A stretch of DNA of 64,000 nucleotides from Escherichia coli (lineage in GTDB: Bacteria > Pseudomonadota > Gammaproteobacteria > Enterobacterales > Enterobacteriaceae): the NCBI RefSeq assembly GCF_003334405.1, contig NZ_QOWM01000004.1. One strand, given 5' to 3'. Position 1 is the first letter of the stretch. Each line of letters begins with the position of its first letter. Positions 29,492 to 49,874 of this stretch are shown here, piece after piece. The notes under the pieces are model-generated. The model saw nothing but the letters and a program-made list of their open reading frames with translations, did not search any database and had not been told where the DNA came from. Position numbers and translations under genes: made by a program.

Positions 29492-31713
29492 AGCGTTGGT
29501 TCCCCCGGCGGTAACGGTTCAGCCGGGGTCGCGCCCGGAGCAGGCAGCACCTGATAAGTCTGCACTGGCGCGCGAACGCCCGCCAGGTCGAAATGTTTTT
29601 TCACCTGGCTGTCGAGGGCAAAGCGTACCGTCCACTGTTTGAGTGGCAGCGTGGTGAACGAAACACGCAGTGTAAACGCGGTATTGCTTAAGCCGACAAT
29701 CCCGGCAAAATTCGGTTCACCAATAATCAGCCCGCGAATTTCTTCGTTTTCCATTAATTCCGCTACCGCATCTTTCAGTGCCTGATTGGCTTTATCAGCA
29801 TCTTCATGGCGATCAACATCATAATTTGCCACCACCGAACCAATGCCGCGGACAAAGTTAGCAAAGGTGGTTATCGAAGACCACGGAATGATGTGATACG
29901 CCCCGGTATCCTGTCGTACGCCCACGGAGCGAATCGACATCCGTTCCACTGTGCCGGTCAACGGCCCGATAGTCACCAAATCTCCAGTGTTCATGCCGTT
30001 TTCAAACTGAATAAATACCCCGGTGATAATATCTTTCACCAGCGTTTGCGAACCAAACGAGATAGCCAGACCTAATGCCCCGGCACCTGCCAGCAATGGC
30101 GCGATATTGACGCCGATTTCCGACAACACAATCATGATGGTGATGGTACTGATAATCACCGCCAGCGCGTTACGAAACAGCGTAAGCAGGGTACGCGTGC
30201 GGGCGCTGGGTAGCGGGCGGCCATGAATATCCGAAGCCAGCCGGTTTTCGATCAAACTGGCGAGCACCGTCCAGCCAACCGCCGAGAAGAAAAGAATGAG
30301 TGCGATACGGATCAGGATATCTACGGTTTTCTGCCCCGCGCCGTTTTGCAGCCAGTTCCAGAAATCGAACAATCCCCATGCGCTCAACAGCAACATTACC
30401 GCCACGCAGACTGTCAGAATACGCGCCGTTTTCAGCGCCGCCGACAGCCAGCCATTCAACCGTTTTTGCAGCTCCGGATAGTTACGCTGAGTATGTGGCG
30501 AGAGAGTGATGGTTTTCGCCAGCCAGCGGGAAAACATACCGGAAACAAACGCTGCGATACCAATAATCGCCAGGCTGCGCACCGTTGCACCCATCATAAA
30601 TTTCAGGCTGTTGCCCGGATCGAACAACGAAAAGAAAAACAGCACGATAAAATAGGCGCTTGCCAGCCAGTGCCACACCAGCGCAAAGGCGCGGATAAAC
30701 AGGCTGAAAAAGGCCAGCGAATGCTCCGCGAAGTTGAGCAAATGCTGGGTAATCTCTTTTTTATTACGAAAGATCAGGTACAACGCCCAGACGGTCATGC
30801 ACAGCATAATGATGACGTTCGCCAGCGCACCTATCTGTACATTCACCTGATTAGAGATAATCGGCACGGCCACAATCAGGCCATAACCTATCAAACTGCT
30901 TAACCAGCTCAGGCGACGACTCCAGTAACGGGCGCTCTCGTCCTGAATCGTGAACGGGCGCAGCTCCGCCACGTTTGGGCAAAAAATCAGGCGTAGTACG
31001 GCTTTGAAAAATTCAATGAGGGCAAAGGCGTTGAGAAACAAACTTTGTTGGAAAGCGATGGTGCGACTGCCTGCATTCAGGTTGTCGCTTAATACCTGGC
31101 CGACAAATAATGTCAGGGCCAGTAACAGCAGGTCGATAATAAACGCCCCGATAATCATCGCCGGAAGCTGCAACCAGTTGCTGCGCTCACGATTTTTTTG
31201 CCGCGCCCACTGACCCATTTTGCGATACAGCGGCAGTGCGCACAGGCGAATCAGCCAGTAAAAACCAAACACTAATACCGCTAACATTGAAAAATGGGTC
31301 AGCGCATTGCTGAAGGTTTGTGGATTAAACGGCTTATGCGGGGAGCCGGTGATATTGCGATAAAGTTGCCCGAAGCGGGCGGAAAGGGCTTCACCATAAT
31401 GGCGGCTGACTTCGGTGACCTTTTGCAGCACGGTTTGCTCTTCGACCAGCGTCGGCGGCACTATTTTTGGTACCGGTTCAGCAGGGGGCGTAGCGGCAAC
31501 GGTGCGCAACTGGTCGATCAACTCTTTACGCGAGGTGTCATTATCCAGCACATCCGCCAGTGCGCCATAGGCCGCTTTTTTTTGTTCGATATCCGGTTCC
31601 GGGGCCGGTTCAGTCGTTGAGTCCGTTGTCGTTGTGGTTGTAACGCCGGGTATGGATACCGCGTGGGCAGGTGCGCCCAGCAGGCAGAAGAGGATGAACA
31701 GGATCCACCGCAT
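29488..31713 (-). CDS. ybiO: MscS-family mechanosensitive channel YbiO
   Basis: Start [18 protein letters not shown] (signal peptide) after GGAGG RBS; ORF track extends to 31848. Confidence 0.9.
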
Positions 31714-31863
31714 GACTCCTCCAGTGAGAAAATAGAGCAAAAAGATAAGTATAGATGCTGGAGGAGGGGCGATTTTAAATGAGAGGAATCTGGTGTGCCT
31801 CCCTTTCGGGTGAAAGGGAGGAAGGGATATTAAGCAGGTTGCTGACAACGTGCGGGCTTTTTT

Positions 31864-31963
31864 GCCGGATGCGGCGTGAACGCCTTATCCGTCCTACAAG
31901 TTCATGCAATTTTAATAAGTTGCCAGATATCCTGTAGGCCTGATAAGCGTAGCGCATCAGGCA
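31864..31963. repeat. REP pair (BIME) between ybiO and glnQ
   Basis: GCCGGATGCGGCGTGAACGCCTTATCCGTCCTAC … GTAGGCCTGATAAGCGTAGCGCATCAGGCA. Confidence 0.75.
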
Positions 31964-31973
31964 ATGTGTCTTA

Positions 31974-32696
31974 TTAAGAGACGTGCTGCAAAAATTCCTG
32001 CAAGCGCTGGCTCGGCGGGTTCTTGATCAACACCTGCGGATTGCCATCTTCCGCAATCCGGCCTTTGTCGATAAAGATCAGCCGCGAAGCTACTTTCTCG
32101 GCAAAACCGATTTCGTGGGTCACGATCACCATCGTCATCCCTTCTTCAGCCAGATCCTGCATAACCTTCAGCACTTCATGGCGCAGTTCCGGGTCAAGAG
32201 CGGAAGTCGGTTCATCAAACAGCATCATTTTCGGCTTCACCGCCAGCGCGCGGGCAATCGCCACACGCTGCTGTTGACCACCAGAAAGTTCGGAAGGGTA
32301 GTGATGTGCACGTTCTGCCAGACCGACTTTCGCCAGCAGCTCACGTGCCAGTTTTTCCGCCTCTTCTTTGTTCGCGCCACGCACGCGTAGCGGGCCAAAC
32401 ATGACGTTTTCCAGCGCTGTCAGATGCGGGAAGAGGTAAAACTGCTGGAACACCATACCTGCTTCCTGGCGAATCAGGCGCTCGTCAACTTTCGGATCGT
32501 TAACCTTCAGGCCATCGACAATCAGATCGCCGGAGGTGATTTCTTCCAGTTTGTTGATGCAGCGCAGCAGGGTCGATTTACCGGAACCGGACGGCCCGAT
32601 AATCACCACGACTTCGCCCTGGGCAATGTTCAAATCGATATTGTGCAGCACCTGGGTTGGGCCAAAGTGCTTGGAGACGTTTTTAAATTCAATCAC
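31974..32696 (-). CDS. glnQ: Glutamine ABC transporter ATP-binding protein GlnQ
   Basis: ORF 240 aa; GPSGSGKST Walker A. Confidence 0.95.
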
Positions 32697-35288: not shown

Positions 35289-35405
35289 TTAGATATATTG
35301 ATAAGAACAATTCTTATTTATCTGCTCGCCAGGAATTTTCGGAATAAATATGCTTTTGCATAATTCGATATATAAAGACGGTGTAGAGGAAAAGTAGCGA
35401 GAAAT

Positions 35406-35433
35406 TCTGCATGGTTATGCATAACCATGCAGA
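35406..35433. terminator. 28-bp near-perfect palindrome TCTGCATGGTTATGCATAACCATGCAGA directly after rhtA stop; probable rhtA terminator or protein-binding site
   Basis: Read in sequence. Confidence 0.45.
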
Positions 35434-35442
35434 AATGTAAAT

Positions 35443-37248: not shown

Positions 37249-38830
37249 AAGGTTTCGGGTCGAAAATATCGGTTCCGAGATGGTTGTAATCCACCTTCTG
37301 TAACTGGAAGTTGGTGATGTATATCGGCCCGGCTTTCTTCTCAGATATAAACGGGTATTTGATGTTAATTTCCTTCGCTTTAATCCCCGTCCACTGGGAG
37401 AAAAAGCCTAAGAAGTCATTGGCTGAGCGGCGGGCTTTAATCACACGATGCGCTTTATCGTCGCTGGAAATGACCATAAAAGGCACCTGGAAATTTTGCT
37501 GATATTTATCATCATGGGCAAGGTATTGCACGTCTTTACCGCGCTCTTTAAAGGCCAGACCGTGGTCAGAAAAGTAAACCAGCGAGAAGCTGCTGCCGCT
37601 GTTGCGTAACTGATCGTACAGCTTGCGCAGTAAATCGTCCGTTTGCGTCATGGTATAGAGATAGCACGACGTTTCTTTCGATTGCACAAAGGTTTCGTAT
37701 TTTCCTTGTGTCCTGTCGCAGGCCTGCGGATGTGAGCCCATCAGATGTAGAACAATCAGCTGCGGTTGCGAGTGCTCTTGCGCCAGCACTTGAGCGGTCA
37801 TATCCAGTAACGCTTCGTCTTTGGTGTTTTTATCTGCTTCAAAATTACCTTCTTTCAGGAAGTACACTTCATCTGCTCGTTTGGCGATGCTGGCGATAGC
37901 GGTATCGTATTCGCCGATTTGACCCTGGTTGGAAAACCACCAGGTCTGGAAGCCCGCGCGATTTGCCAGGGTGACAAAGTTATCCTGAAACTGTGGTTTG
38001 CCATCGACAACGCGATTGAGCGTTAAGCCAAGCGATTTCTGCGTGGAGCCACTGGCGGCAATGTAGTCAGCAAATATCAAACCGTTAACGCTGCTGGCAA
38101 ACGGGGTATTGTCCCAGTGACCGCCAAAGGCACCGAGGGCATCGCGACGCGCGCTTTCACCGATCACCACCACATAGGTCTGATACTTCGGCTTAACGGC
38201 AGTGACCGTCCAGGTATCTTTCATTCCGGAAAGTTTTGCCATCCGTTCTTGCTCTTCAATCACCTCGTTATTATTGACGATGACATCCTTAGCAAAACGA
38301 AATACCGGATAGCCAGTATCTTTCAGTTTAAATACGCCACCCCAGGCCAGGTTTTGCACGGGAGCAACAAAAAATGTCGCCACACTGAATACCAGACACA
38401 GGCTGTCGAAGGTATTCCAGCGCGCTTTTTCATTCTCTTTTTTTCGCCTGATTGCTATTACGCCGAGCGCAAAAATAAATAAGCCGACCAGGTAGCTGTA
38501 CCACGGAAAAATCGTCAGGATTTCGGTCGACTCTTCCATATTGGTGGAGTGCAATGCCAGCAATGTATTGAAATTAGGCGCGCCGTAGGCCTGAGCAAAA
38601 GGGAAATAACAAGCCGCCACCAGCGAACTGACACCGACCAGAACTTTTTGTACGCGAGGCAATGTTCGCCATAGCAAAAGCAAAATAGCCGTAAACGCAG
38701 CGGTGTAGAGCAAACTGAAGGGGTAACCTAAGCCGAGGTTAATTAATAGCGACTGTAAAAAGTAGAACGCAGTCCACGGGCTAAATACCCGGCTACGGGT
38801 AACAAGCGATTCTTTGAGGGTTAAATTCAT
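37247..38830 (-). CDS. opgE: Phosphoethanolamine transferase OpgE (YbiP)
   Basis: ORF 527 aa; N-terminal TM helices plus sulfatase-like domain. Confidence 0.9.
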   Translation of the reverse strand: MNLTLKESLVTRSRVFSPWTAFYFLQSLLINLGLGYPFSLLYTAAFTAILLLLWRTLPRVQKVLVGVSSLVAACYFPFAQAYGAPNFNTLLALHSTNMEESTEILTIFPWYSYLVGLFIFALGVIAIRRKKENEKARWNTFDSLCLVFSVATFFVAPVQNLAWGGVFKLKDTGYPVFRFAKDVIVNNNEVIEEQERMAKLSGMKDTWTVTAVKPKYQTYVVVIGESARRDALGAFGGHWDNTPFASSVNGLIFADYIAASGSTQKSLGLTLNRVVDGKPQFQDNFVTLANRAGFQTWWFSNQGQIGEYDTAIASIAKRADEVYFLKEGNFEADKNTKDEALLDMTAQVLAQEHSQPQLIVLHLMGSHPQACDRTQGKYETFVQSKETSCYLYTMTQTDDLLRKLYDQLRNSGSSFSLVYFSDHGLAFKERGKDVQYLAHDDKYQQNFQVPFMVISSDDKAHRVIKARRSANDFLGFFSQWTGIKAKEINIKYPFISEKKAGPIYITNFQLQKVDYNHLGTDIFDPKP

Positions 38831-45294: not shown

Positions 45295-45445
45295 AACCAC
45301 CTCTCATTAACTTTCATTCGAAACCATTCTGATTTGCATGTGACAATATAAGTTATAAATAAGTTAATGCAAGTTTAATGATTTGATGTGATGTACAGGA
45401 TGTAAAAAGAAGGGAAAACCGGAGCGCACGGCTCCGGTAGAGAGG

Positions 45446-46261: not shown

Positions 46262-46406
46262 AGGTGTGCTCCTGGCTCGAAAATGAAACCGTAACAGTGT
46301 AATAACAATGTGACGCAGAGCACAAATTATATTTCGAATGAAAGTAAGGATGAAATTGATGATGTGAATGATTTAGCCCGGCGACGACGCCGCCGGGCCG
46401 AGGAGA

Positions 46407-49744: not shown

Positions 49745-49874
49745 AGTTGCCTCTCTATTTCGTTCAAGCATTAAAATACTTTCGAATGAAAGTTAGATTG
49801 ATGTGCGTCAACTGTTCAGAGAGTTTTCCCGTGATAGTCTACATTCAGACAAAAAGTACATTTTGAGGATGGTT

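Follow-up and report, generated by a model that had tools for sequence, protein, structure and literature searches.

Background

In a class of Rho-terminated Escherichia coli mRNAs described by Dar and Sorek (2018, NAR 46:6797), precise RNA 3' ends lie just past stable stem-loops that have no U-tract. The stems of this class guard against PNPase and RNase II, and rut sites are located directly downstream of them. REP/BIME elements, which stabilise the 3' ends of mRNAs, are GC-rich palindromes of 3' untranslated regions as well, and they are able to block 3' exonucleases.

The hairpin between glnQ and ybiO of E. coli fits all features of the Dar and Sorek class that could be checked: a stable stem without a U-rich tail, an RNA 3' end a few nucleotides further on, C-rich and G-poor sequence right after it, and read-through that is sensitive to bicyclomycin. 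It departs from the class in that it appears traceable to an ancestral intrinsic terminator, and protection of the RNA is here assigned by analogy. From REP/BIME elements, with which it shares the GC-rich 3'-UTR palindrome, it is set apart by its single copy per genome, by not being a REP sequence, and by the mapped RNA 3' end, which is past the hairpin and not past the REPs, though a REP pair adjoins it in K-12. A third system for comparison occupies the same site after the glnQ stop codon in Enterobacter, Kosakonia, the Citrobacter freundii group, Atlantibacter and Siccibacter. These bacteria carry predicted intrinsic terminators with a GC-rich stem of 8-12 bp, a loop of 3-6 nt and a distance of about 44-47 bp to the ybiO -10 element. 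The E. coli sequence GGCACACCAG has no U-tract, in contrast to GGTTTTTCACCAG of Citrobacter, and termination in E. coli is sensitive to Rho.

Locus and coordinates

The window, the whole stretch of 64,000 nt that was analysed, matches the genome of E. coli K-12 MG1655 at 100%, which confirms the identities of ybiO and glnQ. Coordinates were converted as window = NC_000913.3 - 813767. Both genes are on the minus strand and the hairpin lies in the spacer between them, which is 260 nt long in the window; the hairpin is therefore to be read on the minus strand. An earlier reading of this DNA, made from the letters only (the sequence-only reading), had located it between the REP pair and ybiO, about 85 nt before the start codon. 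Both statements are correct, with 85 nt from the end of the hairpin at 31798 to the A of the ybiO ATG at 31713. The features of the locus, in window coordinates, are as follows.

31974..31976, minus strand: glnQ stop codon (TAA), the coding end of the glnHPQ operon
31862..31965, no strand assigned: REP pair (BIME), inverted repeats I1 and I2
31798..31821, minus strand: probable 3'-terminal stem-loop of glnHPQ, RNA CCUCCCUUUC-ACCC-GAAAGGGAGG, assigned from structure, stem invariance and orthologues
31804..31815, no strand assigned: TTTCGGGTGAAA, inner stem and loop of the hairpin, matching the inferred YciT operator TTTCGAATGAAA / TTTCATTTGAAA at 10 of 12 positions, under a weak ChIP-exo peak
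31794, minus strand: mapped RNA 3' end (...GGGAGGCACA-3'), 4 nt past the last stem base
31726..31797, minus strand: C-rich, G-poor, rut-like segment from the stem to the ybiO Shine-Dalgarno sequence, with 25 C and 4 G in 72 nt
31745..31755, minus strand: TCTATACTTAT, sigma-S-type extended -10 element of the predicted ybiO promoter, with the core TATACT at 31753-31748
31711..31724, minus strand: ybiO Shine-Dalgarno sequence CUGGAGGAG (31724-31716) and start codon (31713-31711)

Structure of the hairpin

The palindrome CCTCCCTTTCGGGTGAAAGGGAGG was found exactly at 31798-31821. An inverted-repeat search gave two arms of 10 nt each (31798-31807 and 31812-31821), which are 100% complementary and 4 nt apart. 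The stem is thus perfect, as the sequence-only reading had it, but consists of 10 bp with a 4-nt loop and not of 9 bp with a 6-nt loop. Folded as RNA of the minus strand, which is the sense strand of ybiO, the hairpin reaches -16.6 kcal/mol against a mean of -6.75 kcal/mol for shuffled sequences (z -4.65; 0 of 200 shuffles as good), and it retained its self-folding in every context tested, including those of 136 nt and 281 nt. Hairpins that combine a perfect stem of 10 bp or more with a loop of 3-8 nt are rare: the 64-kb window holds seven distinct ones, compared with about 0.55 in shuffles, and the remaining ones are mostly gene-end hairpins.

The Shine-Dalgarno-like AGGGAGG that had been reported for the ybiO sense strand is present, in the 3' arm of the stem. 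No ATG, GTG or TTG follows it at Shine-Dalgarno distance, the next bases being CACACCAGATTCC. A scan against Rfam 15 (E <= 10) gave no family match, only sub-threshold REP-derived hits (naRNA4) and noise; the naRNA4 hit falls in the region of the REP pair.

Position after glnQ and variation within Escherichia

The REP pair is missing from about 60% of complete E. coli genomes. The full query was covered by 2230 of 5426 genomes, the rest spanning 227 instead of 371 bp. In strains without the REP pair the glnQ-ybiO spacer measures 116 nt, compared with 260 nt, and in the alignment the hairpin begins 8 nt past the glnQ TAA. K-12-like strains have the REP pair and about 45 nt of additional sequence (to about 31822) between the glnQ stop codon and the hairpin. 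The segment that follows the REP pair, TTGTCAGCAACCTGCTTAATATCCCTT, aligns with the 3' end of glnQ of REP-less strains (TTTTGCAGCACGTCTCTTAACTTCTCTG), pointing to a possible duplication of the target at the REP insertion.

The 117-nt segment from the hairpin to the ATG was found in 5421 of the 5426 E. coli genomes, once per genome (median 1 place). A dispersed palindromic repeat of the REP/BIME kind was ruled out by this single copy. None of the 20 stem positions varies among 13 Escherichia sequences, in which the loop reads ACCC, CCCC, CCC or CCCT and the immediate flanks are variable too. When 15 sequences of Escherichia, Citrobacter and Salmonella were treated with MAFFT and RNAalifold, indels in the loop misaligned the 3' arms and led to a meaningless consensus of 6 pairs; folding of each locus against dinucleotide shuffles was used in its place.

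RNA 3' end and Rho termination

A dominant Term-seq 3' end at NC_000913.3 845561 (minus strand; window 31794) is listed in Supplementary file 1 of Adams et al. (2021, PMC7815308), with ...GAAAGGGAGGCACA before the end and CCAGATTCCT after it. The M63 glucose tab gives an average of 29,295 reads for this end, which was called dominant in M63 glucose only and not in either of the two LB conditions (PMC7815308). The end is labelled 'orphan' solely on account of the REP insertion, which sets it at a distance of more than 50 nt from the stop codon of glnQ.

DirectRNA-seq with and without bicyclomycin identified a Rho-termination region with its top position at 845551 (minus strand), which is window 31784 (Rho score 4.04, p 5.6e-9; PMC7815308). 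Reads upstream and downstream of this position numbered 83 and 58 without bicyclomycin, and 45 and 127 with it (PMC7815308). The Rho score was computed on 800-nt windows, so that it does not pin down the action of Rho exactly at the site of the hairpin. The 8 nt after the stem of E. coli K-12 contain 0 T. Of the leader structure or processing site that the sequence-only reading had proposed, two parts are upheld: a structure of the RNA on the sense strand of ybiO, and the formation of an RNA end at this place. The part concerning ybiO translation found no support.

Orthologous hairpins in other genera

A YbiO scan of species-representative genomes yielded 80 loci, and glnQ is directly upstream of ybiO in nearly all of them. 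Every spacer opens with a GC-rich hairpin, and the loci come from about 25 enterobacterial genera. In 73 enterobacterial loci the median offset from the glnQ stop codon to the hairpin is 8 nt; the median stem has 9 pairs. The sequence of the stem depends on the genus, for example GCCGGGC..GCCCGGC, CCCCTCC..GGAGGGG and GCTCTCCC..GGGAGAGC, and the stems of several groups are listed below.

Escherichia and Citrobacter: CCTCCCTT(T)C
Enterobacter, Lelliottia and Leclercia: GCCGGGC
Kosakonia: CCCCTCC
Klebsiella and Raoultella: GGCTCTCCC

Compared with dinucleotide shuffles, the segment from the stop codon to the promoter gave a mean z of -3.14, with values below -2 in 55 of 67 loci. In 30 of the 67 scored loci the GC core is followed by 5 or more T within 8 nt, with T runs of 5-8; judged by their sequence, these loci are canonical intrinsic terminators. 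Terminator-like examples are GCCGGGCATGCCCGGC-TTTTTTACGC of Enterobacter and CCTCCCTTCGCCTGAAGGGAGG-TTTTTCACCA of Citrobacter braakii, which has GGTTTTTCACC at its glnQ-ybiO junction. Escherichia (GGGAGG-CACACCAG) has 0-1 T in 8 nt, among the lowest values of the set. Because many outlying genera carry the T-run, we infer that it is ancestral and was lost in Escherichia, a polarity drawn from this distribution without a tree. A loss of the same kind seems to have taken place in Salmonella arizonae and in Klebsiella and Raoultella.

In Pseudocitrobacter, Buttiauxella and a related genome, nested palindromes (CCCTCACCC..CCCTCTCCC..GGGAGAGGG..GGGTGAGGG) were observed after glnQ, within the first ~100 nt past the stop codon (loci L060, L067, L070, L086 and L059). 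The same type of element bears a Term-seq 3' end in the glnH-glnP spacer of E. coli (NC_000913.3 847200, minus strand).

The ybiO promoter

The sole block that is invariant across the spacers (76 of 76) is CTATACTTA. It is located 34-36 nt before the start codon in most loci. In E. coli it is 44 bp downstream of the hairpin, and the likely sigma-S promoter of ybiO is placed here. The element TCTATACTTAT agrees with the sigma-S extended -10 consensus TCTATACTTAA (quoted in PMC3367168) at 10 of 11 positions. Expression of ybiO is RpoS-dependent, and sigma-70/S promoters of the gene lie within 135 bp of its start (Edwards et al. 2012, PMC3508906). The sigma-S promoter was detected only via conservation; a scan of the site with sigma-70 and terminator consensus sequences returned no promoter and no terminator. 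With the predicted transcription start near 31741, the hairpin is at about -57 to -80. As the predicted promoter lies downstream of the hairpin, the hairpin would be absent from that ybiO transcript.

The sequence-only reading had named a ybiO transcription start downstream of the hairpin as the observation that would speak against a leader structure. The predicted promoter places the start there, while one RACE 5' end lies upstream. This high-throughput end, listed in RegulonDB at NC_000913.3 845736 (window 31969) and used by Reg-Seq, is 5 nt past the glnQ stop codon, inside the strain-variable REP insertion. Given this position upstream of the hairpin, the hairpin may be part of some of the RNAs that extend into ybiO. 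The Cappable-seq and SMRT-Cappable-seq supplements list no row that matches an experimental ybiO transcription start, and ybiO is not mentioned in Maciag 2011. On balance, we infer a start downstream of the hairpin.

Between the hairpin and the -10 element, the block CCAGAWT...TCYCA(T/A)(T/A)(T/A) (window about 31778-31794, minus strand) is conserved across genera. It is located at about -37 to -53 of the predicted ybiO transcription start and may be an activator site or an UP-like element.

A second perfect stem, of 9 bp, is formed in K-12 on the minus strand by CUCCUCCAG (31758-31766) and the Shine-Dalgarno region of ybiO, CUGGAGGAG (31716-31724). Its upstream arm precedes the -10 element, and it could therefore act only on read-through RNA from glnHPQ, in a manner that would resemble the fold-back inhibition of IS10. 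A conserved silencer of read-through RNA was considered for this stem and rejected, with -11.65 kcal/mol for cognate, -10.55 kcal/mol for shuffled and -10.97 kcal/mol for non-cognate pairings. Across 70 loci the anti-Shine-Dalgarno pairing had a mean z of -0.5.

Binding of YciT

A ChIP-exo peak of YciT described as 'upstream of ybiO' was reported at NC_000913.2 844783-844814 (Gao et al. 2021, PMC8464067). The reads of that study were mapped to NC_000913.2; after a conversion of +777 the peak corresponds to window 31793-31824 and is centred on the palindrome. With an S/N of 2.66 it ranks 48th of 49 peaks, the second lowest. The operator of YciT was inferred from five other strong peaks (yfcV, rdcA, yjiT, yjjI and yhgE). 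The pattern TTTC(A/G)WW(T/C)GAAA, within 2 mismatches of TTTCGAATGAAA, occurs in 5 of 5 of these peaks and is peak-centred in 4 of 5. Only five sites in the 64-kb window match as well as the hairpin core. The rarity of such a match, together with the centred peak, makes weak binding of YciT to the palindrome DNA of K-12 probably real.

Like the YciT operators at ybiUVWY/fsaA, yfcV, rdcA, yjiT and yjjI, the hairpin has a TTTC-N4-GAAA core (10 of 12 positions) and a centred ChIP-exo peak. It differs from them in its central bases, which are GG rather than A/T, in its very weak signal and in a match that is not conserved. The operator resemblance of the hairpin core is regarded as a fortuitous near-match, probably without function at ybiO. 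As by-products, the comparison provides a usable operator consensus for YciT, TTTC-RWWY-GAAA, and an explanation of the weak ChIP-exo peak.

Interpretation

With a probability of roughly 0.85, the hairpin is the 3'-terminal stem-loop of glnHPQ, a former intrinsic terminator that is now without a U-tract, at which transcription is stopped by Rho and the RNA is trimmed, and which protects the operon mRNA and insulates ybiO. This reading draws on the structure, the position after the glnQ stop codon, the orthologues, the mapped 3' end, the bicyclomycin-sensitive read-through and the composition of the downstream sequence. In the proposed course of events, an ancestral intrinsic terminator with a GC stem and a U-tract, apparently still canonical in many Enterobacteriaceae, would have lost its U-tract in Escherichia. 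Rho would halt the transcription that leaves glnQ, in K-12 within the C-rich, G-poor stretch just past the hairpin, and the RNA would be trimmed in 3' to 5' direction back to the stable stem, giving the defined 3' end 4 nt after it. The stem would shield the mRNA of the glutamine ABC transporter encoded by glnHPQ from exonucleases, and the stem and Rho together would insulate the sigma-S-driven ybiO from the nitrogen-regulated operon upstream. Exonucleolytic trimming and protection (PNPase/RNase II) are presumed by analogy with the other members of the class.

The 'orphan' Term-seq end at 845561 (minus strand) and the Rho-termination region can now be assigned to the end of the glnHPQ operon, and annotation of the hairpin as a leader of ybiO is to be avoided. 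Its importance beyond annotation is small: it is an ordinary operon-end element of a well-understood kind in the best-studied bacterium. It nevertheless makes a clean example of one orthologous terminator that would be intrinsic in part of the enterobacterial genera and, in Escherichia, dependent on Rho and without a U-tract.

Alternative explanations

It is improbable that the E. coli hairpin still works as an intrinsic, Rho-independent terminator in spite of the missing U-tract, although a share of intrinsic termination at it is conceivable. The strong GC-rich stem at an operon end, the seemingly canonical orthologues in Citrobacter, Enterobacter, Kosakonia and other genera and the precise 3' end mapped close to the stem agree with such a function, but it is contradicted by the lack of T in the 8 nt after the stem, by the consensus terminator scan, which makes no call, by the position of the 3' end at +4 and not in a U-tract at +7 to +9, and by the bicyclomycin sensitivity of the read-through. 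Less probable still is a hairpin in the 5' untranslated region of ybiO that modulates translation or is an endonucleolytic processing site of the ybiO mRNA. RNAs that include the hairpin are conceivable from the RACE 5' end at 845736 and from read-through of glnHPQ, and in long RNAs of K-12 the second perfect 9-bp stem can sequester the ybiO Shine-Dalgarno sequence. However, the hairpin tracks the glnQ stop codon and not the ybiO start codon, it precedes the invariant sigma-S -10 element, and its GGAGG, 85 nt from the ATG, makes no contact with the ybiO Shine-Dalgarno sequence and has no start codon of its own; on these grounds the leader structure affecting translation that the sequence-only reading had suggested was dropped. 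The RACE position, moreover, falls in a REP insertion that most E. coli genomes lack, no Rfam family matches, and the anti-Shine-Dalgarno pairing is no better than expected from composition, with a C-A mismatch in most E. coli. The 5'-UTR table of Adams et al. (2021, PMC7815308) keeps 3' ends with a dRNA-seq transcription start at most 200 nt upstream, and ybiO / 845561 is not among the 5'-UTR matches listed.

Two further explanations concern the DNA. The pentamer GGCAC, which spans the 3' end of the stem and the tail within AGGCACACCAGATTCC, could be the -24 element of a sigma-54 promoter of ybiO, for which a computational prediction of RegulonDB exists upstream of the sigma-S one (Edwards et al. 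2012, PMC3508906). This is extremely unlikely: the GG-N10 spacing puts TC at -12 and not the near-invariant GC, GGCAC is missing in other genera, and genomic SELEX of RpoN reports the glnH promoter and nothing at glnQ-ybiO. The palindrome might also be a functional operator of the DeoR-family regulator YciT that controls ybiO transcription, possibly alongside a role of the RNA. The centred ChIP-exo peak and the agreement of TTTCGGGTGAAA with the consensus at 10 of 12 positions favour this view, which is nonetheless very unlikely given the second-lowest signal of all 49 peaks and the position of the site at about -57 to -80 of the predicted promoter. In addition, the genes reported to change in a yciT deletion do not include ybiO (Gao et al. 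2021, PMC8464067), the loop of most E. coli is CCCC or CCC, which turns the core into TTTCGGGGGAAA or alters its spacing, and the stems of other genera are unrelated. A composite of these ideas is equally speculative and would be a surprise: the U-less, Rho-dependent terminator of Escherichia would be conditionally leaky, with read-through from glnHPQ into the mechanosensitive-channel gene ybiO under nitrogen limitation when Rho is weaker, and the K-12 palindrome would add a weak YciT roadblock or operator that ties the junction to osmotic or anaerobic control.

Other palindromes in the window

Perfect copies of TTTCGAATGAAA, or of its reverse complement, occur at 45312-45323, 46332-46343 and 49780-49791, in the intergenic regions ybiV-ybiU, ybiW-ybiV and ybiY-fsaA. 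The three copies are probably the genuine YciT operators. Their distance from the ChIP-exo peaks of ybiV and ybiY, as published, is 111-164 bp; a later remark made in connection with Reg-Seq, that the ybiY site is about 100 bases off the ChIP-exo call, agrees with this offset.

The sequence TTTCGGGTCGAAA (window 37253-37265) was noted just past the ompX terminator, under another YciT ChIP-exo peak with an S/N of 14.9. It has TTTCGGGT in common with the hairpin core, and its spacing is 5 nt.

A perfect palindrome of 30 bp, TTCTGCATGGTTATGCATAACCATGCAGAA, with a 13-bp stem, is located at window 35405-35434 in the dps-rhtA spacer, a few nucleotides past the rhtA stop codon, and may be another gene-end hairpin without a U-tract or an operator.
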